In this document: piece by piece, positions 6,590 through 50,018 of the stretch
How the letters are laid out: each line of letters begins with the position of its first letter
How positions within the stretch are numbered: position 1 is the first letter of the stretch
Assembly (NCBI GenBank): GCA_036280195.1
Contig: DASURF010000022.1
Coordinates: 3,161-67,160, forward strand
Direction: 5' to 3'
DNA: 64,000 bases
From: Solirubrobacterales bacterium
GTDB taxonomy: Bacteria; Actinomycetota; Thermoleophilia; Solirubrobacterales; 70-9
Position numbers and translations under genes: made by a program
The notes under the pieces: model-generated
What the model saw: the letters and a program-made list of their open reading frames with translations, nothing else
Told to the model about the DNA's origin: nothing
Databases searched by the model: none

Positions 6590-9043
6590 ATGATCGCCAC
6601 CTACGCCTCGGCGGCGCTGGTCTGCGCCGTCTCGCTGCTGGTCGGCCGCGCCGTTCTCTCGCTCGCCGGCAGCCGCGTGTGGTCATGGCTGGAGCCCGCG
6701 GTCGGCCTCGGCGCGGTGCTGACCGTGACCGGCCTGCTGGCGCGTGCGCCGGGCCACGGCACCTCGGCGACCCTCGGGCTCGCGGCGCTGGTCGTGGCCG
6801 CGGCGCTGGTCCTGTGGCGAAGCGGCGTTCGTCCTTTTCCCGACAAGGACGTCCAAAGGACGAACGCCGGGAGTCCGTGGCGCGAGGGACTGCCGGTGGC
6901 GGCGGTGGTCCTGGTCGTGCTCTCGATCCCCTTCGCGATCAGCGGCCACTGGGGGCTGCTCGGCGTCGGCTTCAACAACGACCTCGGCCTGCACCTGGCC
7001 TGGGCCGAGTGGCTGCGCAGCGGCTTCGGCCCCGATGCCGACCCCGGCTACCCGCTGGGTCCCCACGGCCTGGCGGTGGCGACGGCGACCGTGCCGGGCA
7101 TCGGCCTCGGCCAGGCCTTCCTCGGCGAGATCATCGCGATCGGCGTCCTCACCGGATTGACGGCCCTGGGCGCGCTGCGATCGATGACCCCGACGCGTCG
7201 CACGATCGCCGCGGCCATGGTCGCCGTCCCCTACCTCGCCGCTTCCTACTACGCCCAAGCAGCCTTCAAGGAGACGGCAGAGGCCCTGCTCGTACTTGCT
7301 TTCGCACTTCTTCTGGCCTCTGTCTCAGAGGAGCAAAAGATGCGGCCGGATAGCGCCGGCAGCCAGACCCCCTCCCCAGACACTCAACATCGAGCGCGGC
7401 GAGATGTGTCTGAGGCGGGGGTCTGGCTGCCGGCGCTCACCCTCGCCGGTGGCATCTTCTTCAGCTACTCCTTCGCTGGGATCGCGTGGCCAGTAGCGAT
7501 CCTCGTCCTCTGGAGCCTGACGCTGCCTGAGGTGCGGGCGGCGCTGCGGCCGCGGGCGCTGCTGCGCTTCCTGTTGCGGCCGGTGACCCTGCTGGCGCTG
7601 GCCGCCCTGGCGGGGATCGCGGTGCTGGTCACGGTGGTCGGCCCCTTCGGCTTCGCCGGTAGCTTCAACAAGGTCGCCGGCAGCAACACCTACGGGCCGG
7701 TCTCGCCGCTCGAGGCGCTGGGGATCTGGCCCGCCTCGAACTACCGCCTCGACGCCGCCGGCGGAGCGCGGCTGCCGGGCCTGGCGGGGACGATCTCGAT
7801 CCTCGCCCTGCTGGTCGGCGTCGCCTGGTGGGTAAAGCGCCGCGAAGCGACGATCCCGATCGCCCTCGGCGCCGCCTGGCTCCTCTACCTCGTCTCGCTC
7901 CCCTCCGCGGGCGACTACTCCCAGGCCAAGGCGCTGATGATCGCCGCCCCCCTGGCGATGCTCGTCATCGCCCGCCCCCTGCTGGAGGAATTCCCGCGCG
8001 TCGGGCACCGGGGAAGTGGGTCCGCCGGACCCTCCCCCGCGGCGCCCCCCCTGCGGCTGGCGTGGGCGGTCCTGGCAGTGGCCTTCATCGGAGGCGCGGT
8101 CTGGTCCAGCTTCCTCGCGTTGCGCGACGCGCCGGTGGGGCCGCCCGGGCACGGGGCCGAGCTGAGCGCCTTCCTGCCGATCGTCCACGGCAAGCCGGTC
8201 CTCTACGCGGGCCAGGACCGCTACGCCGCCTACGAGCTGCTCGGCGCCGACACCCACGTGCCGCTGGTCGAGTTCCCCGACGACGCCGTCTCGCCCAACC
8301 CGGAGAAGCCCTTCGACACCGGCGACGCCTACAGCCCGATCGACTTCGACTCCTTCTCGCGCGGGACGCTCGACCGCTTCCCATACGTGATCACCAGCCG
8401 CGCCGCCTGGAACAGCCAGGCGCCACCCGACTTCAAGCGGATCGCGACCACCGACTCCTACGTGCTCTGGGAACGGACCGGCCCGACCCCCGAGAGCCGC
8501 CACGTCCTGCTCGAGGGCACCGAGGCCGGGGCGCCGGCCGGCTGCGCGGCGCCGGAGGTGCGGATCCTGCTCGCCGACCCCGGGCGCGCCGGCCTCTTCC
8601 CCGGCGCGGTGATCGGCCACAAAGAGGACTGGGACGAGGGCAGCATCCTCGAGACCGGCGAAGAGGCCTCGCAGGCGCTGCGGCTGCCGGCCGGCAGCTG
8701 GAACCTCTCGCTGCAGTACTTCTCGCCCTTCGACCTGACGCTCTCGGCGCCGGGCTTCAGCGAAGGGCTGAAGGCGGCACTGGACGGCCAGCGGCCGAAC
8801 ACGATCAGCCTCGGCAACAACGGCCAGTTCTGGCCCGCCGGCCGCTTCGAGAGCGAGGGCGGCAGGGTCCGCTTCACGGTCGAGGCCGCCGAGGCCAGCG
8901 CCCTGCAGAGCCTCACCGGCTACGACGGCAAGGCCTACCTCGGCGAGCTGGTCGCGGTCCCGGCCGAGCCGCACCGCACCGTGCCGCTCTCACAGGCTTG
9001 CAACCAGTGGATCGACTGGTACGAAGCCGACGAAGCGCCCTAG
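6590..9043 (+). CDS. large polytopic membrane protein with C-terminal extracytoplasmic domain (possibly GT-C-like)
   Basis: From the ATG at 6590 there are more than 10 hydrophobic helices, then a soluble domain of about 300 aa. The upstream part of the track ORF is Arg-rich and overlaps the MBL gene end. Confidence 0.65.
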   Translation: MIATYASAALVCAVSLLVGRAVLSLAGSRVWSWLEPAVGLGAVLTVTGLLARAPGHGTSATLGLAALVVAAALVLWRSGVRPFPDKDVQRTNAGSPWREGLPVAAVVLVVLSIPFAISGHWGLLGVGFNNDLGLHLAWAEWLRSGFGPDADPGYPLGPHGLAVATATVPGIGLGQAFLGEIIAIGVLTGLTALGALRSMTPTRRTIAAAMVAVPYLAASYYAQAAFKETAEALLVLAFALLLASVSEEQKMRPDSAGSQTPSPDTQHRARRDVSEAGVWLPALTLAGGIFFSYSFAGIAWPVAILVLWSLTLPEVRAALRPRALLRFLLRPVTLLALAALAGIAVLVTVVGPFGFAGSFNKVAGSNTYGPVSPLEALGIWPASNYRLDAAGGARLPGLAGTISILALLVGVAWWVKRREATIPIALGAAWLLYLVSLPSAGDYSQAKALMIAAPLAMLVIARPLLEEFPRVGHRGSGSAGPSPAAPPLRLAWAVLAVAFIGGAVWSSFLALRDAPVGPPGHGAELSAFLPIVHGKPVLYAGQDRYAAYELLGADTHVPLVEFPDDAVSPNPEKPFDTGDAYSPIDFDSFSRGTLDRFPYVITSRAAWNSQAPPDFKRIATTDSYVLWERTGPTPESRHVLLEGTEAGAPAGCAAPEVRILLADPGRAGLFPGAVIGHKEDWDEGSILETGEEASQALRLPAGSWNLSLQYFSPFDLTLSAPGFSEGLKAALDGQRPNTISLGNNGQFWPAGRFESEGGRVRFTVEAAEASALQSLTGYDGKAYLGELVAVPAEPHRTVPLSQACNQWIDWYEADEAP

Positions 9044-22896: not shown

Positions 22897-22902
22897 TTAG
22901 AT

Positions 22903-22937
22903 GGTTCCTTTGTCCGGATATATAGGACAAAGGAACC
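22903..22937. repeat. perfect 13-bp-stem hairpin GGTTCCTTTGTCC-N9-GGACAAAGGAACC
   Basis: Read directly. It lies 7 nt after the stop of the 22327 gene. Confidence 0.85.
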
Positions 22938-22971
22938 AGGAGATGCAACCGGATCAGGCTCATGGCAAGTC

Positions 22972-23010
22972 GTGGTTCGTTTGTCCTCTCTTGGCGGACA
23001 AAGGAACCAC
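22972..23010. repeat. second hairpin built from the same 13-mer (GTGGTTCgTTTGTCC-N9-GGACAAAGGAACCAC)
   Basis: Read directly. It has one arm mismatch and lies 34 nt after the first hairpin. Confidence 0.85.
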
Positions 23011-23649: not shown

Positions 23650-23735
23650 CCGCGCGAGGATAGATAGAGCAACGGATCGGCCCCTCCCGCGGGTGGAAGA
23701 CAGGACCCGCAGGCCGAGGCCCTCGTCCCTAAGCC

Positions 23736-25850
<2,115 letters not shown>

Positions 25851-25864
<14 letters not shown>

Positions 25865-26891
25865 AGCTCTTCTTCACCTTCTTGCGCACCTTCTTCCCGT
25901 CCTTCATGAAGGTGATCTTTGCGCCGGCCTTATGAGTCGAACCGGGCGCGAAGCCTTCGGTGGAGAAGGCCGCTTCCCACGGCTTCCTCTTGTCGGACCT
26001 CTTCTGCGCGTCGAGGGAGAAGTCGACCCGCTTGATGGTGGCGTGGGGCGCCTTGCTCTTCTTCTTCTTCGACTTGACCTGCAACCTGATGCCGCGACCG
26101 GGGGTGACGCATGACCTGGGGTAATAGAAGGTGACGCGCTGGTCGCCGAAGGTGAAGCTGAAGGAACGGTTCGGCGCCGGGCTCGCGTAGTAGACGGATT
26201 CGGCGATGAAGAACCGGCTGTCGCCCTGGTTGACGTAGAGGCAAAGCCGGAGCGCCCCGTACTCGGGGTAGAAGTCCTCCCGCGCCGTCTCGCTGCCGGA
26301 ACCGGTGTGAACGTCGCCGACGTAGGCGATGTGAGCGCCGTTAGGGGAGCAGGGCTGGGAGCTGGGGTATTGCCAGGCCTCCGGGAACCAGCCGCAATAG
26401 CCGCCGACGCAGTGGTCGAAGTTGGTGGTGTAGGTCGCTTCCACACGCCCGCCGCTGATCGCATGGACGTTGCTGATAGCGCCTGACATGCTCGAGGTCG
26501 GGGTAAAGGTCGCTTCGGCGATGAAGTAGTTGGCGCCCGACTGGTAGGCGTAGAGGCAGATCCGAATCGGACCTTCGAAAGCCGGGGCGAAGCGGTCGGC
26601 GGCGGTCTCACTCCCCGAGGTGGCGTGAAGATCCCCGACGTAGGTGAGATGGGCGCCGCTCGGGGCGCAGGGCTGGCTCGCCGGGTATTGGTACGCGTGC
26701 GGGAACCAGCCGCAATAGCTTCCGTCGCAGATATCCATGTTGGTCGTATAGGTGGCTTCGACTTCGCCCCCCACCGCATGGACGTTGTCGATCGATCCGG
26801 AGGCGGCTCGTGCCGTCGGCGCTTGGACCGCGAGCAGACCAACCAGGGCGACGAGGAGAACAGTGACGCGGACCTTCATTGGGCTAACCAT
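25851..26891 (-). CDS. secreted protein with two tandem ~105-aa Cys-containing repeats and a Lys-rich tail
   Basis: Signal peptide MVSPMKVRVTVLLVALVGLLAVQAPTARA. Two units share the blocks NVHA..G.VEATYTTN.D.C.G.YCGWFP.A.QYP.SQPC.P.GAH..YVGD.H..SGSETA. Confidence 0.7.
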
Positions 26892-34016: not shown

Positions 34017-35165
34017 ATGAACCGAACCCTCGTCCGAACCCTGCTCTGCGCCGGGGTGGTCGGGCTCCTCGCCCTCTTCGCCACCGCCTGCGGATCGAGC
34101 GACGATGAGACCACCAGCGGCAGCTCCGGCGACGCCGAGCAGCTTGCCTTCACCCTGAACGAGCACGGCTGCGACCCGGCTGACGCCGAGGCGGGCGCCG
34201 GCCCGATCACCTTCGAGGTCGAGAACGCCAGCTCCAACCCCGACCTGCACGAGCTCGAGGTCCTCGACGGGGAAACGGTGCTCGGCGAGACGCCGGACCT
34301 CAGCGAGGGGGACAGCGGCACCTTCACCCTCACCCTCGAGCAGGGCGAATACACCCTCCTCTGCCCCGGCAGCGACGGCGAGCCCGGCACGCTGACCGTG
34401 AGCGGCGAGCTGGAGACCGCGAACAGCCCCGAGGTCGACGCGGCGATCGACGACTACCGCTCCTACCTGGAGGAAAACACCGCCGAGCTGGTCTCCGCGA
34501 CCGAACCGTTCGTCGCCGCGGTGGTCGCCGGGGACGTCGCCAGGGCGAAATCCCTCTACGCCGCCGCCCGCATCCCCTACGAGCGGATCGAGCCGGTCGC
34601 CGAGTCCTTCGGCAGCCTCGACCCGAAGATCGACGCGCGTGAAAACGACGTGCCGGCGAGCGAATTCGAAGGCTTCCACCGGATCGAGAAAGCGCTCTGG
34701 GAAGAAGGCACGGCCAAGGGCATGGCGCCCGTCGCCGAACAGCTCATGGCCGACGTCGAAGAACTGGCGCAGAAGGTGAAGACCGTCGAACTGCAGGCGG
34801 TGCAGATCGCCAACGGCGCCAACGAGCTGCTCGGTGAGGTCTCGGCTTCGAAGATCACCGGCGAGGAGGAGCGCTACTCGCACATCGACCTGGTCGACTT
34901 CGAGGCCAACGTCGAAGGGTCGGAGGCGGCCTTCGAAGCGGTGAAGCCCTTGCTTGACGAATCCGATGCCGACCTTTCGGGGGAGATCGAAGCGGACTTC
35001 AAGATGGTCTTCGACTCGCTGGAGCCGTACCGGACCGAAGGCGGGTTCGTGAGCTACACCGAGTTGACGAAGGCGGATACCAAGAAGCTGGCGGTTGGGA
35101 TCGACACGTTGGCGGAGAAGTTGAGTCTGGTGCCGGCGGCTATTGCGCAGGCGGAACACGGGTAG
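34017..35165 (+). CDS. efeO: EfeO/EfeM-family iron-uptake lipoprotein (cupredoxin + M75-like domain)
   Basis: Lipobox LFATAC. N-terminal cupredoxin-like segment and a C-terminal imelysin-like segment (HRIEKALW). It follows efeB. Confidence 0.8.
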   Translation: MNRTLVRTLLCAGVVGLLALFATACGSSDDETTSGSSGDAEQLAFTLNEHGCDPADAEAGAGPITFEVENASSNPDLHELEVLDGETVLGETPDLSEGDSGTFTLTLEQGEYTLLCPGSDGEPGTLTVSGELETANSPEVDAAIDDYRSYLEENTAELVSATEPFVAAVVAGDVARAKSLYAAARIPYERIEPVAESFGSLDPKIDARENDVPASEFEGFHRIEKALWEEGTAKGMAPVAEQLMADVEELAQKVKTVELQAVQIANGANELLGEVSASKITGEEERYSHIDLVDFEANVEGSEAAFEAVKPLLDESDADLSGEIEADFKMVFDSLEPYRTEGGFVSYTELTKADTKKLAVGIDTLAEKLSLVPAAIAQAEHG

Positions 35166-35181: not shown

Positions 35182-35274
35182 TAGGGACCATGGTCTCTGG
35201 CCGGCGGGTCCTGTCTCCGATATTGGGCTCTCCCTAGCGGGAGAGTCCTCAATATCGTCGCCACCCGCCGGAGA
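35182..35274 (+). repeat. copy 1 of a ~95-nt imperfect-palindrome repeat family (sense with recQ)
   Basis: TAGGGACCATGGTCTCTGGCCGGCGGGTCCTGTCTCCGATATTGGGCTCTCCCTAGCGGGAGAGTCCTCAATATCGTCGCCACCCGCCGGAG. It aligns end to end with the copies at 41542 and 49672. Confidence 0.85.
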
Positions 35275-35281
35275 AGTGCCT

Positions 35282-36847
35282 ATGGTGGCCGGTCCGATGG
35301 CCGGAGAGGAGAAAAAGGCTGACGAGCTACTAGGCGTCCTTGGCTACCGCGAATGGCGGGCGGGTCAAAGGGAGGCGGTTGTCGCTGCCCTTGAAGGGCG
35401 GGATTCGTTGATCGTCATGCCTACGGGCGGGGGGAAGAGCCTCTGTTATCAGCTGCCTGGGCTTGCTTCTGAGGAGTTGACGATTGTTGTCAGTCCTCTG
35501 ATCGCTCTGATGCGGGATCAGTGGGGGAAGCTGAGCTCGCAGGGGCACCGGGTGGCGATGATCACCTCGGGGATGGAGGACTGGGAGGTCTCCGAGGCGT
35601 TGGAGATGGTGCGGGGGGATGCGCGGATCGTCTACTGCGCGCCGGAGCGGTTCGGGTCGCAGGTGTTTCTCGACGCGCTCGCCCAGCGCGAGGTCGACCT
35701 CGTCGCGGTCGACGAGGCGCACTGCGTCTCGGAGTGGGGGCACGACTTCCGCCCTGACTACCTGCGCCTGCCCGAGGTCGTCCAGCGGCTGGGCCGGCCG
35801 ACGGTGATGGCCTGCACGGCGACGGCGACGGTGCCGGTCGCGCGCGAGATCGCCACCCGCTTCGAGATGCGCGAGCCCCTGCAGGTGCGCGCCGGCTTTG
35901 ACCGGCCGAACCTCTCCTTCGACGTCGTCGCGCTCGAGGGCAAGGGCTCGCAGGCGCGGCGGCAGGCGCTGCTGGAGACGGGGCTGGGCGACGCGGCCAA
36001 CCTGCCGGCGATCGTCTACTGCGGCACCCGCAAGCAGACCGAAGAGGTTGCCGCCGAGCTGCGCGACGAAGGAATCGCCGCGGTCGCCTACCATGCCGGG
36101 CTCGAACCGGCCCACCGGACGGCGATCCAGGAGCGCTTCATGGCCACCGACAGCGGCGTCATCTGCGCCACCAACGCCTTCGGCATGGGCGTCGACAAGC
36201 CAGACGTGCGCTCGGTCTGGCACATGACGATCCCGACCAGCGTCGAGGCCTACTACCAGGAGGCGGGCCGCGCCGGGCGCGACGGCCTCCCTTCCCGGGC
36301 GGTGATGCTGGCGCTGAAAGCCGACCTCGGCCGCCTCGTCCGCTTCAACGAACAGCGCGCCGGCGACCCGGACCTGGCGATCGCCCGCGAGCGCGGCTGG
36401 CGCGCCTACCACGCGATCAAGGACTTCATCTACGGCAGGGAGTGCCGCCGCCGCGCCCTCCTCGACCACTTCTCCGACCGCACCGCGGGGGCGCCGCTGG
36501 AGCGCTGCTGCGACGTCTGCGACATGCTCGACTGGCTGCCCGACCCGGACACGATCGCGGTCCGCAAGTCGGCGCGGGCGAAGGCTCCGGCGACGCCCGC
36601 TCCCGACCTCGGCCCGGCCGATGCACCCCTCTTCGAGGCGCTGAAAGCCTGGCGACTGGGCGCTGCTGTCGGCAAGCCCGCCTACACCGTCGCCAGCAAC
36701 AAAACCCTGACCGCGATCGCCACCGCCCGCCCGCACGACGAGGACTCGCTGCTGGCGATCAGCGGCGTCGGCCCCGCCTTCATCGAAAAGTACGCCCCCG
36801 AAGTCCTGGCGATCGTCGCCGAGCACGCCCAGCCGCTCGCCGCCTAG
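35282..36847 (+). CDS. recQ: ATP-dependent DNA helicase RecQ
   Basis: Motifs GYREWRAGQ, PTGGGKSLCYQLP, DEAHCVSEWGHDFRPDY, TATAT and QE.GRAGRDG. A Zn-binding Cys cluster and a C-terminal HRDC domain are present. Confidence 0.9.
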   Translation: MVAGPMAGEEKKADELLGVLGYREWRAGQREAVVAALEGRDSLIVMPTGGGKSLCYQLPGLASEELTIVVSPLIALMRDQWGKLSSQGHRVAMITSGMEDWEVSEALEMVRGDARIVYCAPERFGSQVFLDALAQREVDLVAVDEAHCVSEWGHDFRPDYLRLPEVVQRLGRPTVMACTATATVPVAREIATRFEMREPLQVRAGFDRPNLSFDVVALEGKGSQARRQALLETGLGDAANLPAIVYCGTRKQTEEVAAELRDEGIAAVAYHAGLEPAHRTAIQERFMATDSGVICATNAFGMGVDKPDVRSVWHMTIPTSVEAYYQEAGRAGRDGLPSRAVMLALKADLGRLVRFNEQRAGDPDLAIARERGWRAYHAIKDFIYGRECRRRALLDHFSDRTAGAPLERCCDVCDMLDWLPDPDTIAVRKSARAKAPATPAPDLGPADAPLFEALKAWRLGAAVGKPAYTVASNKTLTAIATARPHDEDSLLAISGVGPAFIEKYAPEVLAIVAEHAQPLAA

Positions 36848-40752: not shown

Positions 40753-41526
40753 TCAGGGACGCTCGCGCTCCTGCATCAAGCCGGCGATCGCGAAGCAGGC
40801 GGCGCCGGCGAAGGTGGCCCAGTTGGCGATCCCGACCGCCAGCTCGTCGCCGGTCGCGGGGCGGACGAAGGCGGCGACCGCGGCGGCCATGAAGAGGGCC
40901 GAGCCGAGCTGGTTTACGACCACGATCCACCAGCCGAGGTCGGCGCGGCGCCCGCGCGGGCGGTCGCGGCGCATCTCGGTCAGGGCGAGATGGCCGGAGA
41001 GCAGGAAGAGGACGCAGCCGACGAATTCGGGCGTCCAGACGAGCCGGTGGACCTGGGCGGTGGTGAGGTCGCCGAGCAGCGCCGCCATCAGGCCGGCGCC
41101 GAAGTAGAGGGTGCCGACGAACAGGGCGACGGCGCTCGCCCAGTCGAGCCGCCCCGGCTCGGTCGACCACCAGCGCCAGGGCGCAGCCCGCACCACACCG
41201 TCTGGCCCGGTCCCGCGCGGCGCGTTGGCGACCTGCAGCACCGACGCGTAACCACCGGTGGTGAAGAACACCCCGCCGACCATGAAGACCGCCGCAGCCA
41301 ACCGCGGCCCCCCGACATGCGCCTGCGCCAGCAGCGCCCCCACGCAGAACAACGACCCCCCGATCAAGAACGCGGTGGCGGCAACGGCATTGATCAACGT
41401 CAGCCGCCGCTTAGTCCCCTCATCCGCCCGCGCCCGAGCCGCGGCCGGCTCTGCACCCCAGCCACCACCAACCCCCGCTTGCGCAACGCCCGCCGATCGA
41501 GATCCACCGCGGCAGCGTATTGCCAC
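40753..41526 (-). CDS. hypothetical integral membrane protein
   Basis: About 6 hydrophobic helices. The start is uncertain; GTG at 41526 was chosen because the ORF upstream of it runs through repeat copy 2 and into the AKR gene. Confidence 0.5.
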   Translation of the reverse strand: MAIRCRGGSRSAGVAQAGVGGGWGAEPAAARARADEGTKRRLTLINAVAATAFLIGGSLFCVGALLAQAHVGGPRLAAAVFMVGGVFFTTGGYASVLQVANAPRGTGPDGVVRAAPWRWWSTEPGRLDWASAVALFVGTLYFGAGLMAALLGDLTTAQVHRLVWTPEFVGCVLFLLSGHLALTEMRRDRPRGRRADLGWWIVVVNQLGSALFMAAAVAAFVRPATGDELAVGIANWATFAGAACFAIAGLMQERERP

Positions 41527-41541
41527 GTTGACCGACCTCAA

Positions 41542-41635
41542 TTCTCTGGCGGGTGGCGACGATCGGGAGGACTCTCCCGGTAGGGAGAGCCCCCGATCGG
41601 AGACAGGACCCGCCGGCCAGAAGCCCTGGTCCCTA
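41542..41635 (-). repeat. copy 2 of the ~95-nt repeat family
   Basis: Plus strand reads TTCTCTGGCGGGTGGCGACGATCGGGAGGACTCTCCCGGTAGGGAGAGCCCCCGATCGGAGACAGGACCCGCCGGCCAGAAGCCCTGGTCCCTA, which is the reverse complement of copy 1. Confidence 0.85.
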
Positions 41636-41636
41636 A

Positions 41637-42476
41637 TCAGTCGGCGTTGAAAGTCCCAGGATCCGACCCGATGCGCTCGCCCGTGTCCAGCCGCGCCAGC
41701 GCCGCCATGTCGTCCTCGCTCAACTCGAAGTCGAAGACCTCGAAATTCTCGCGGATCCGCTCCGGCGTCGCCGATTTCGGAATCACCACGTTGCCGACCT
41801 GCAGGTGCCAGCGGAGGATCACCTGCGCCGGGGTCCGGTCGCGGTGGGCGGCGACCGTGGCGATGGTGCCGTCCTCGAGCAGGTCCCCCTGCGCCAGCGG
41901 GCTCCAGGCCTCGGTGGCGATCTGATGCTCGTCGTCCCAAGCGCGCAGCTCGGGCTGCTGGAAGCGCGGGTGGAGCTCGACCTGGTTGACGGTCGGCCGC
42001 CGCTCGGCCTCCCGCTCCAGGCGTTCCAGATCCTCGATCCTGAAGTTGGAGACGCCGATCGAGCGGGCGCCGCCTTCCTCCTGGATCCGTTCGAAGGCGC
42101 GCCAGGTCTCGAGGAAGAGGTCACGGTCCGGCCGCGGCCAGTGGATCAGATAGAGGTCGACGTAGCCCGTGCCGAGCCGGCCGAGGCTCTTCTCGAATGC
42201 GGCCAGGGTCGAGTCGTACCCCTGCTGCGAGTTCCACAGCTTGGTGGTGACGAAGACGTCCTCGCGATCGACCCCGGTGGCGGCAATCGCCGCTCCCACC
42301 CCGACCTCGTTGCGGTAGGCGGCGGCGGTGTCGATGTGGCGATAGCCGACGCCGAGCGCCTCCTCGACCGCCTCCTGCGTCTCGTCGGGAGGGATCTGGA
42401 AGACGCCGAACCCGAGCTGGGGAATCTCGACGCCGTCGTGCAGGGTCAGGACGGGGACTTCGGTCGCATTGGCCAT
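41637..42476 (-). CDS. aldo/keto reductase (2,5-diketo-D-gluconate reductase-like)
   Basis: 279 aa. Motifs GYRHIDTA, LYLIHWP, IGVSNF and IPKS. Confidence 0.9.
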   Translation of the reverse strand: MANATEVPVLTLHDGVEIPQLGFGVFQIPPDETQEAVEEALGVGYRHIDTAAAYRNEVGVGAAIAATGVDREDVFVTTKLWNSQQGYDSTLAAFEKSLGRLGTGYVDLYLIHWPRPDRDLFLETWRAFERIQEEGGARSIGVSNFRIEDLERLEREAERRPTVNQVELHPRFQQPELRAWDDEHQIATEAWSPLAQGDLLEDGTIATVAAHRDRTPAQVILRWHLQVGNVVIPKSATPERIRENFEVFDFELSEDDMAALARLDTGERIGSDPGTFNAD

Positions 42477-48686: not shown

Positions 48687-50018
48687 CTAGAGGGCGAGCG
48701 AGACCGGCTCTTCGAGCAGCTGCTTGACCCGGGCGAGGAACTCGGCGCCCTCGGCGCCGTAGAGGATGCGGTGGTCGCAGGAGAGGGTCGCCTTCATCAG
48801 CTGCGCCGGGACGATCTCGCCGTCGCGGACGGCGGGAAGCTCGCGGATCGCGCCGACGGCGAGGATCGCCGCCTGGCCCATGTTGATCACCGCGTCGAAC
48901 TCGTCGATCTCGAACATCCCCAGGTTGGAGACGGTGAAGGTGCCGCCCGAGAGCTCCGGCGGCGTCACCGAGCCGTCGCGCACCTTGGCGGCGACGGTAC
49001 GGGTGTCGGTGGCGATCTGCCGCAGGCCCTTCCTGTCGGCGTCGAAGATCGTCGGCACGACAAGCGCTTCGGAGGCGGCGACGGCGACGCCGACGTTGAC
49101 CCGCGAGTAGAGCTCGAACCGCCCGTCGCGATAGGCGCCGTTGGCTTTCGGGAACTCACGCAGGGCGATCGCGCACGCCTTGACGATCATGTCGTTGAAG
49201 GAGGGCACCACGTCGCCCTCCTTGGACGCGGCCTTGATCGCCGCCCGCGCCGCGACCGCCTTCCCCATGTCGATCTCGATCGTCAGGTAGAAGTGCGGCG
49301 CCGTCGCCTTCGACTCCGCCATGCGGCGGGCGATCGTCTGCTGCAATTTGTTCAGGTCACGAGTTTCGACTTCACCCTTGGCGGTTTCAGACGGAGCCTG
49401 TTGGCCAGCGGGTCCTGCCACCTGCGGAGGTGCCTGCGCTGGATGCTCGGCACCTCCTCCGGCGCCACCCACTGGAGAAGCGCCTCCGGCTGACTCTGCT
49501 TCCTCTACGTCGTGCTTGATGATCCGGCCCCCGGGGCCGGAGCCATGTAGGTCTTTCAGGTTCAGGCCCTTGTCACGAGCCAGGCGACGAGCCAGCGGCG
49601 AAGCTTTGACCCGCTCCCCGTCCTCGGACCCCGGCTCAGCGGCTCGACCCTCGGCGTCAGCCGTCTTCTCTTGTCCCGTGGGTGGCGACGATTCCGAGGA
49701 CTCTCCCGGTAGGGAGAGCCCGGAATCGGAGACAGGACCCGCGGGCCGAGCGCTCCGTCCCTGATCCGAAGCTGCCTGCCCGTTCGACTCCCCGATGCGC
49801 GCGATAGGACTGCCGATCGGCAGAGTCTCGCCTTCCTGGGCCAGGATCTCGGTCAGCGTCCCCGCGACATCGGATTCGTAGGCCATGTTCGCCTTGTCGG
49901 TCTCGATTTCCACCAGCTCGTCGCCGACCGCGACCTCGTCCCCGACCTGCTTCAGCCAGGAGAGGATGGTTCCCTCCTCCATCGAGTCGGAGAGGCGGGG
50001 CATCACCACCTCACTCAT
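48687..50018 (-). CDS. dihydrolipoamide acyltransferase (2-oxoacid dehydrogenase E2 component)
   Basis: Lipoyl domain (IETDKA), PSBD (SPLARRLARDKGLNLKDLHGSGPGGRI) and catalytic domain with DHRILYG. A long linker contains repeat copy 3. Confidence 0.9.
   Translation of the reverse strand: MSEVVMPRLSDSMEEGTILSWLKQVGDEVAVGDELVEIETDKANMAYESDVAGTLTEILAQEGETLPIGSPIARIGESNGQAASDQGRSARPAGPVSDSGLSLPGESSESSPPTGQEKTADAEGRAAEPGSEDGERVKASPLARRLARDKGLNLKDLHGSGPGGRIIKHDVEEAESAGGASPVGGAGGGAEHPAQAPPQVAGPAGQQAPSETAKGEVETRDLNKLQQTIARRMAESKATAPHFYLTIEIDMGKAVAARAAIKAASKEGDVVPSFNDMIVKACAIALREFPKANGAYRDGRFELYSRVNVGVAVAASEALVVPTIFDADRKGLRQIATDTRTVAAKVRDGSVTPPELSGGTFTVSNLGMFEIDEFDAVINMGQAAILAVGAIRELPAVRDGEIVPAQLMKATLSCDHRILYGAEGAEFLARVKQLLEEPVSLAL
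49672..49765 (-). repeat. copy 3 of the ~95-nt repeat family, inside the E2 coding sequence
   Basis: Plus strand reads GTCCCGTGGGTGGCGACGATTCCGAGGACTCTCCCGGTAGGGAGAGCCCGGAATCGGAGACAGGACCCGCGGGCCGAGCGCTCCGTCCCTGATC. It is translated in the E2 frame as RPAGPVSDSGLSLPGESSESSPP. Confidence 0.85.

Follow-up and report, generated by a model that had tools for sequence, protein, structure and literature searches.

In-frame insertion of palindromic repeats into protein-coding genes is associated mainly with the Rickettsia palindromic elements (RPEs). A 2024 review of MITEs (transposable elements of the miniature, inverted-repeat kind) treats frequent insertion of this kind as a peculiarity of Rickettsia and only speculates about other prokaryotes (PMC10969869); the families RPE-1 to RPE-10 (Ogata et al. 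2000, 2002) are summarized there. In-frame MITEs are also reported from Coxiella (PMC5896051). Here a dispersed palindromic repeat that behaves like an RPE is described from a 64,000-nt stretch of contig DASURF010000022.1 (the window, meaning the whole stretch analysed), which belongs to a metagenome-assembled genome (MAG) of a Solirubrobacterales bacterium (GCA_036280195.1) and has a G+C content of 69%. One copy, c3, lies in frame within the gene for a 2-oxoacid dehydrogenase E2 (dihydrolipoamide acyltransferase). This segment is probably a copy of a non-autonomous, structured, selfish repeat, similar to RPEs or to repetitive extragenic palindromes (REPs) and MITEs, that is tolerated in protein linkers.

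The repeat shares many properties with RPEs. Both are dispersed palindromic repeats of ~100-150 nt with a stable hairpin and several subfamilies, and both have a large fraction of their copies in frame in unrelated housekeeping genes, with a preferred phase and at tolerated surface or linker positions. Orthologous positions are conserved in both, and neither has a known transposition machinery. The hosts differ, since RPEs are found in an AT-rich obligate intracellular alphaproteobacterium, while the repeat described here is found in free-living actinobacteria of 69% G+C, and a sequence relationship is not expected. In addition, the subfamilies found here have one conserved core around an inner hairpin that can be swapped, a site may have exchanged its occupant even where the genes are near-identical, in-frame copies occur in either orientation with a phase for each, and head-to-head pairs bracket a domain. 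The repeat works like an RPE, but it differs in host, in composition, and presumably in sequence, and for this reason it is not classified as one; the likeness is one of behavior and not of sequence compared with the RPE consensus.

REPs, together with bacterial interspersed mosaic elements (BIMEs) and REP doublets (REPINs), resemble the repeat in several ways. Both are imperfect palindromes rich in G+C, are mostly located just downstream of genes, and often form inverted pairs. Both lack target-site duplications (TSDs) and terminal inverted repeats (TIRs), and both are thought to act as folded single strands. A REP, however, is a single hairpin of 20-40 nt with 5' GTAG and is extragenic by definition, while the element described here is a nested structure of 71-92 nt plus a tail, is 38% intragenic, and is accompanied by no REP-associated tyrosine transposase (RAYT) in the sampled DNA. 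It is not classified as a REP because it is not extragenic and its architecture differs. The MITEs of other bacteria (Coxiella QMITE1, Neisseria Correia elements, enterobacterial repetitive intergenic consensus (ERIC) sequences, and Anabaena MITEs; PMC10969869, PMC5896051) are small, non-autonomous, and occasionally translated, and they can supply ribosome-binding sites or alter mRNA structure. Those MITEs have clear TIRs, TSDs, and a parent insertion sequence (IS), and their in-frame copies are exceptional. In contrast, the present repeat has a TIR of only 8 bp, no detectable TSD, and more than one third of its copies in frame. It is not classified as a classical MITE because it lacks a TSD and its inverted repeat is limited to 8 bp.

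In-frame palindromic repeats are not tied to reductive intracellular genomes, as they are seen here in free-living high-G+C soil actinobacteria. The distinctive features of this family are a strict phase rule in both directions, a cassette-like exchange of hairpins, the bracketing of domains by inverted copies, and a core that crosses phyla. An earlier note on this DNA, made from its sequence alone, was aware of no such repeat in high-GC actinobacteria, and a literature search likewise found no published family of this kind in Thermoleophilia or Actinobacteria.

Two repeat copies within the E2 gene

The E2 gene (48687..50018, - strand) is an intact open reading frame (ORF) of 443 aa, the only long ORF of its region with high G+C at third codon positions (GC3). 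By Pfam it has the domains Biotin_lipoyl (residues 3-75), E3_binding (137-172), and 2-oxoacid_dh (216-442), and the orthologue alignment shows no variation at the lipoyl Lys42 or at the catalytic DHR (415-417). The earlier note had proposed that a palindromic repeat of ~95 nt at 49672-49765 is inserted in frame in this gene, in the flexible linker between the lipoyl domain and the peripheral-subunit-binding domain (PSBD). A covariance model trained on 41 non-redundant copies places c3 at 49671..49762 on the + strand, antisense to E2, as a type A hairpin with a score of 100.3 bits (E=2.7e-19). E2 reads through it as ...RSARPAGPVSDSGLSLPGESSESSPPTGQE..., exactly the translation given in the note, within the longer stretch ...GRSARPAGPVSDSGLSLPGESSESSPPTGQE...; a tryptic peptide across the insert would be, for example, ...PAGPVSDSGLSLPGESSESSPPTGQEK. 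The insert corresponds to residues ~86-116, which places it between the lipoyl and E3_binding matches as the note had stated.

The gene contains a second copy, c4 (49384..49480, - strand), a diverged type D hairpin with ...CCGAGCATCCAGCGCAGG... that is sense to E2 and corresponds to residues ~180-206 in the linker between the PSBD and the catalytic domain. With filters off, the covariance model matches it at 49401-49480 (39.3 bits, E=3.2e-6). As c3 and c4 are in opposite orientations, the PSBD-coding segment is bracketed head-to-head. In an AlphaFold model made from the E2 alignment, the predicted local distance difference test (pLDDT) is below 50 at residues 80-135 and 179-210 and above 80-90 in the three domains, in line with disordered linkers. 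GC3 is 0.83-0.85 on either side of the insert, in the same frame. The invariant Lys42 and DHR, the confidently predicted domains, and the disorder of the linkers indicate that E2 is very probably functional despite both inserts.

Structure and subfamilies of the repeat

The repeat family was collected with the pattern AGACAGGACCCGCNGGCC, taken from the 3' junction, which gave at least 114 loci in a species-representative genome collection. About 95 of the matches listed are true copies, almost all of them in Solirubrobacterales or "uncultured Actinomycetes" MAGs. The loci of other genomes bear L numbers below, and each genome was sampled at 8-20 kb. The covariance model has 118 matches in 736 kb of related loci, and the density in the uncultured Solirubrobacterales clade is about one copy per 13-30 kb of DNA sampled. 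A phage or plasmid origin was considered and rejected: blastn found no match in PLSDB or INPHARED, and the four pattern matches in viral contigs are all due to chance and the element is absent from them.

All subfamilies have in common an 8-bp helix, P1 (CCSGYGGG/CCCGCSGG), followed by an asymmetric internal loop whose 5' side is UGGC and whose 3' side is GACAGGA. The most frequent types have this loop lengthened by GA/GA beside the inner hairpin, P2. The 5' flank ends in CT (positions -2/-1) in ~90% of copies. On the 3' side there is a tail of ~17 nt, often with a small palindrome, that ends in GTCC(CT); GTCC is found at +8 to +24 in 44 of 99 copies, against 6.6% in the background. On the + strand 49672-49765 reads CCCGTGGG TGGCGAC GATTCCGAGGACTCTCCC GGTA GGGAGAGCCCGGAATC GGAGACAGGA CCCGCGGG CCGAGCGCTCCGTCCCT. 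Within c3 the P1 5' arm is at 49675-49682, the loop TGGCGAC at 49683-49689, the P2 hairpin at 49690-49727, the loop GGAGACAGGA at 49728-49737, the P1 3' arm at 49738-49745, and the tail, whose last bases are GTCCCT, at 49746-49762. Spelled out, its hairpin is GATTCCG-A-GG-A-CTCTCCC GGTA GGGAGAG-CC-CGGAATC. The inverted repeats are limited to P1, as the inner arms are unlike each other (TGGCGAC and TCCTGTCTCC), and GGTAG occurs only in the loop or stem of P2, where it varies between copies.

P2 is variable and interchangeable, and it defines at least four subfamilies: type A (GAGGACTCTCCC-GNNA-GGGAGAGCCC), type B (GCGGGACCCGCGCC...), type C (ACGGTAGGGGGGACC...), and type D, of which c4 is an example. 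Types A and B coexist on single contigs (L019 and L070). The distance from P1 to P1 is 71 nt in 86 of 104 copies, including both type A and c4, while it is 80 or 92 nt in type C. All of these lengths equal 3n+8, and an occupied site accordingly differs from an empty one by a unit of 63, 72, or 84 nt.

The proposed fold agrees with the variation among copies. In the 41 non-redundant copies, 92.9% of the cells are paired, compared to 80.1% in column shuffles, and none of 500 shuffles reaches the observed value. Controls in which the pairing was slid give 35-50%. Double compensatory changes are found at 10 pairs. The window copies c1, c2, and c3 are near-identical (100-103 bits, E~1e-19) and differ at four base pairs of the hairpin foot, all of them compensated (CGGG/CCCG, ATTG/CAAT, TCCG/CGGA). 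An exact search for the 72-nt core had no matches in 100 shuffles.

The + strand may be the strand whose fold matters. For c1, c3, and c4 the fold is stronger on this strand than on its complement; for c3 the folding energies are -55.0 and -47.7 kcal/mol (z -3.3 vs -1.8). Counted over P1 and the P2 foot, the + strand has 27 G:T wobbles against 3 A:C mismatches. These events are not all independent, so the bias is taken as moderate evidence.

The fold was compared with known structured RNAs and recombination sites. Rfam 15 gave no match at gathering thresholds in the window, only noise at E<=10 around c1, and none in the variant loci. The hepatitis delta virus (HDV)-like ribozyme, the T-box UGGN bulge, the ykkC/guanidine and ZTP riboswitches, and other folds were rejected because their helix order does not fit and Rfam gives them no support. 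An integron attC site was rejected as well, since the ends of the repeat are CT-CCSGYGGG and ...GTCCCT and there is no GTTRRRY core site.

The same core (CCAGCGGGTGGC...GGCAGACAGGACCCGCTGG) is found outside the Solirubrobacterales, in multi-copy repeats that unrelated lineages have of their own. These are a low-GC Planctomycetia MAG, CAYZNX01 (L007, L011, L017, L020, L061, and L104), and Acidimicrobiia-type MAGs (L015, L087, and L101), whose loci also have additional 3' halves in tandem. Such occurrences hint at a core that is older or more mobile than the Solirubrobacterales family.

In-frame copies in other genes

The phase rule is the same in many unrelated genes. Genes around the copies were called with a simple GC3-based method, and 38 of 100 copies lie fully inside called genes, 20 in the sense and 18 in the antisense orientation. 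Among the sense copies, 18 of 20 read PPAGGDD.EDSP.RESP.SETGPAG, and 18 of 19 antisense copies read (R)PAGPVSD..SSPPAG. The few exceptions in phase look like gene-calling errors. In both orientations the codons begin at the first base of P1, and P1 is read as Pro-Ala-Gly in each. Of the element's six frames only one is closed, by the TAG of the GGTAG loop. The earlier note had proposed RPE-like behavior and had suggested a survey for other copies within coding sequences; in the loci from related MAGs there are many, with one phase per orientation.

Several hosts were identified by Pfam. In DnaX the element lies between domain III and the C-terminal domain, and in the helicase Lhr it is found at two different positions. 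A Kgd/SucA-like fusion with lipoyl, PSBD, E2, and E1 parts has an antisense copy in the lipoyl-PSBD linker. Other hosts are a ParA/MinD-like ATPase, NuoC, Wzy-type ligases, and the region upstream of the FtsZ GTPase domain. The hosts thus include two 2-oxoacid dehydrogenase E2 proteins in addition to DnaX, Lhr, the FtsZ region, and NuoC. At a pyrK-pyrD junction (L076:843-2822) a single stop-free frame runs from PyrK-like (Fe-S/NAD-binding) into PyrD (DHO_dh) sequence, with a type A copy exactly where the two meet, and this copy may have fused the two cistrons.

Head-to-head pairs recur in E2, DnaX, L019, L021, L033, and L080. DnaX has a pair arranged as in E2, consisting of a sense type A copy and an antisense type C (or A) copy ~130-200 nt upstream. 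The pair is present in nine orthologues (L098, L010, L079, L036, L086, L018, L082, L102, and L093), and both copies are in frame in a low-complexity linker.

Occupancy of the E2 site in relatives

Among the 120 E2 proteins most similar to this one (75-91% identity), all of which have its three domains, ~115 have the c3 site occupied (...ARPAGPV...SSPP(T/A)G...). On this distribution, c3 is neither a private nor a recent insertion. The middle of the peptide falls into discrete types (SDSGLSLPGESSESS, SDTSPAPTGAGPASS, DAGDPPPAAEQQGVPPTT, TAGDPPPLPVAKASSGEVPPTV, and TEEDPPCSTNRTARGGSSSA), which are the reverse-strand translations of the P2 subfamilies.

The block is missing in five of the 120 orthologues, and the DNA was examined for two of them, L115 and L117. 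They read ...GCTCGG CCCGCGGG AGAG...; they keep the tail, a single P1 arm, and the flank on the 5' side, and exactly the 63-nt unit is gone. A deletion from one palindromic P1 arm to the other would leave such an allele. In E2 orthologues at a greater distance (<=68% identity, drawn from a library clustered at 50%) the linkers are ordinary, rich in Ala and Pro, and the block is absent. The alignment with orthologues that the note had suggested therefore shows ~21-31 codons that are absent with sharp boundaries in L115 and L117 and absent from all of the distant set. Reading the empty E2 alleles for a TSD is ambiguous because P1 is itself palindromic.

Over the whole E2 gene, DNA identity is 93-100% in the parts coding for domains and 55-80% in the linkers. 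Between the window and L118, L120, L057, and L105, the core flanks of c3 are identical and ~32 nt of P2 are exchanged from type A to type B. Such a wholesale exchange is beyond point mutation but can be produced by gene conversion from a family member or by re-insertion. The c4 copy is kept in L118-L120; in L060 and L117 its place is taken by other subfamilies, and L057 and L105 lack it. Hairpin swaps between genes that are 93-100% identical elsewhere provide a natural experiment on the evolution of linker length and composition.

The c1 site, which is intergenic, is similarly variable. In the window it holds a type A copy; L118 (15158-15279) has one that is type D-like, L120 (11344-11414) has only the 3' half, and L119 (17646-17697) has none. 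An extra membrane-protein ORF of the window (40753-41526, - strand) is absent from L118-L120, so synteny breaks at the c1 repeat.

Intergenic copies

Most of the family is intergenic (62 of 100 copies), and these copies tend to follow genes. In 40 of the 62, a gene encoded on the other strand has its stop codon within a few to ~60 nt of the tail. Such copies follow the gene as the reverse complement and end in ...CCGGAG(R). Between co-directional genes the antisense and sense arrangements are in a ratio of 25:12, and the head-to-head pairs in convergent intergenic regions (L019 and L021) match the after-stop rule. A protein-database search with the encoded peptide returned only "hypothetical proteins" of 65-96 aa (P0271-P0295), which are translated intergenic copies. 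The family explains hypervariable linkers as well as spurious "hypothetical proteins" of ~68 aa in MAG annotations.

The covariance model finds five family copies in the window, of which c3 and c4 are within E2. Copy c1 (41541-41634, + strand, type A, 101.7 bits) has on one side the stop of a gene for an aldo/keto reductase (41637-42476, - strand) and on the other the membrane-protein ORF mentioned above, and it is antisense to both. Copy c2 (35183-35276, - strand, type A, 103.2 bits) lies between an imelysin gene (34017-35165, + strand) and recQ (35282-36847, + strand). Its reverse-complement end, ...CCGGAGAAGTGCCT (CCGGAG(R)), precedes the ATG of recQ by 10 nt and resembles a ribosome-binding site for that gene. 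The fifth copy (23681-23730, + strand, 28.8 bits, E=6e-4) is core-only; it keeps P1, the junctions, and the tail but has no P2 (CCCGCGGGTGG^AAGACAGGACCCGCAGG...GTCCCT), and it abuts the stop codon of ahcY (23736-25181, - strand). It resembles a hairpin-deletion derivative, and some E2 orthologues have the same form (P0038).

Nature of the repeat

If the repeat is a selfish and mobile element, as we consider probable, its copies would persist where harm is small: just past the stop codons of genes, within intercistronic spacers, or, when in frame, within disordered linkers between domains. In-frame copies would be tolerated because the unit of 63 nt (72 or 84 nt in the longer subfamily) is a multiple of codons and encodes a stop-free, disordered peptide rich in Pro, Gly, Ser, Asp, and Glu, with one phase per orientation. 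In E2, c3 lengthens the swinging-arm linker between the lipoyl domain and the PSBD by ~21-31 residues, c4 does likewise in the next linker, and the insertion would presumably be neutral for the enzyme. The occupant of a site would be overwritten by ectopic gene conversion from other members with the shared core as homology, and this process would both keep copies alike and swap their P2 types. Occasional loss would occur by deletion between the two P1 arms. Propagation would involve the folded + single strand, either DNA or RNA, and some trans-acting factor that recognizes it.

Several observations weigh against this explanation. Apart from the 8-bp P1, the element has no long terminal inverted repeats. 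No target-site duplication was detected, as the longest common substring of a copy's own flanks averages 4.55 nt compared to 4.40±0.10 nt for permuted pairings, and none is copy-specific. Among the sites compared there was no newly inserted copy with clean boundaries; mobility is thus undemonstrated, and the family could have spread entirely by recombination. A motif scan (Y..NP..AG) of ~1 Mb in six frames, at 8-20 kb per genome, found no transposase, RAYT, or other partner, and no parent IS with matching terminal inverted repeats turned up, although no genome-wide search was made. The unpaired junctions are highly conserved and the core is also present in Acidimicrobiia and a low-GC Planctomycetia MAG, which fits a selected function better than junk. 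The 25:12 antisense bias of intergenic copies may also reflect function or selection and not neutrality.

The main alternative, possible if unlikely, is that the repeat is instead a functional cis-acting nucleic-acid module under selection, whose core, perhaps pseudoknotted with the GUCC tail, binds or is processed by a host factor. Its role might be in mRNA decay or processing, in translation pausing between domains, or as a single-stranded-DNA signal, and linkers and intercistronic spacers would merely be places that accommodate it. This would explain why the junction nucleotides are near-invariant across subfamilies and common to other phyla, why orthologous sites stay occupied while the occupant changes, and why the strand-asymmetric wobbles suggest selection on one folded strand. 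The position of most intergenic copies just after stops, with a reverse-complement end that gives GGAG before the next start, and the recurrence of head-to-head pairs are also consistent with it. However, the copies are used in both orientations relative to transcription, nearly equally within coding sequences (20 sense and 18 antisense) and with both represented among intergenic copies, so the favored fold would be missing from many host mRNAs. In the E2 mRNA itself, c3 gives C:A mismatches and has the weaker z-score (-1.8 vs -3.3). Sites are empty or half-occupied in close relatives that retain the gene, orientation is not correlated with GC skew, no Rfam family matches, and no conserved promoter-like flank was seen at the elements.

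A narrower proposal on the mechanism, credible but unlikely in our judgment, is that the repeat is the substrate of a single-stranded-DNA enzyme of the HUH/Y1, RAYT, or IS200/IS605 type, in the manner of REPs and REPINs or of palindrome-associated transposable elements (PATEs), with the + strand cut beside the conserved 5' CT. The wobble bias is strand-specific whatever the direction of transcription, CT is at -2/-1 in ~90% of copies, there are neither TSDs nor long TIRs, and the inverted pairs resemble REPINs or BIMEs, all of which agree with such a substrate. On the other hand, no RAYT motif was found in ~1 Mb, which is weak evidence since only 8-20 kb was sampled per genome. The nested helix with one hairpin is unlike both a REP (a single hairpin of 20-40 nt with 5' GTAG) and a PATE (two subterminal hairpins). 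With respect to local GC skew or the gene-strand majority, a proxy for the replication strand, the orientation of copies shows no signal (42:51, p=0.4).

A more speculative proposal, which we regard as rather doubtful, concerns the core (P1, the UGGC/GACAGGA loop, and the GUCC tail). An undescribed propagation system that is specific for single strands, and enzyme- or RNA-templated, might use this core as its recognition module. Such a system would carry interchangeable hairpins as "cargo" and would systematically write disordered spacers of 21-28 codons into linkers, sometimes bracketing small domains such as the PSBD of E2. The compact conserved core provides a handle on the propagation mechanism of such elements.

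Selection at the protein level is very improbable. In this explanation the linker module PAGPVSD...SSPPAG would spread as a flexible spacer and the palindrome would be incidental, which would account for the strict phase rule and the disordered, hydrophilic peptides. It is largely refuted by the intergenic location of 62 of 100 copies and by the covariation, which alters the peptide while keeping the helix. In addition, the same DNA read both ways gives unrelated peptides, and hairpin swaps replace the whole peptide at one site. Finally, it is barely conceivable that the E2 ORF represents a pseudogene, a pair of separate genes, or an artefact of assembly with an accidental in-frame reading, an idea that the sequence evidence refutes: the openness of five of the six element frames does make an open frame alone weak evidence, but the gene is a single 443-aa ORF with three domains, Lys42, and DHR, GC3 is the same in one frame on both sides, and >100 orthologues from independent assemblies have the same architecture and phase.

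Other features of the window

Three further features of the window are repeats or palindromes of other kinds. Between two + strand ORFs, at 22902-23009, are two adjacent near-perfect palindromes of ~37 nt (TGGTTCCTTTGTCC...GGACAAAGGAACCA), which are operator-like and unrelated to the repeat family. A long hairpin at 7352-7437 has 32-nt arms that are 94% complementary and a 22-nt loop. The ORF at 25851-26891 (- strand) includes a 161-nt direct repeat (26284-26444 and 26602-26762, 75% identity), which is probably an internal repeat of the protein.

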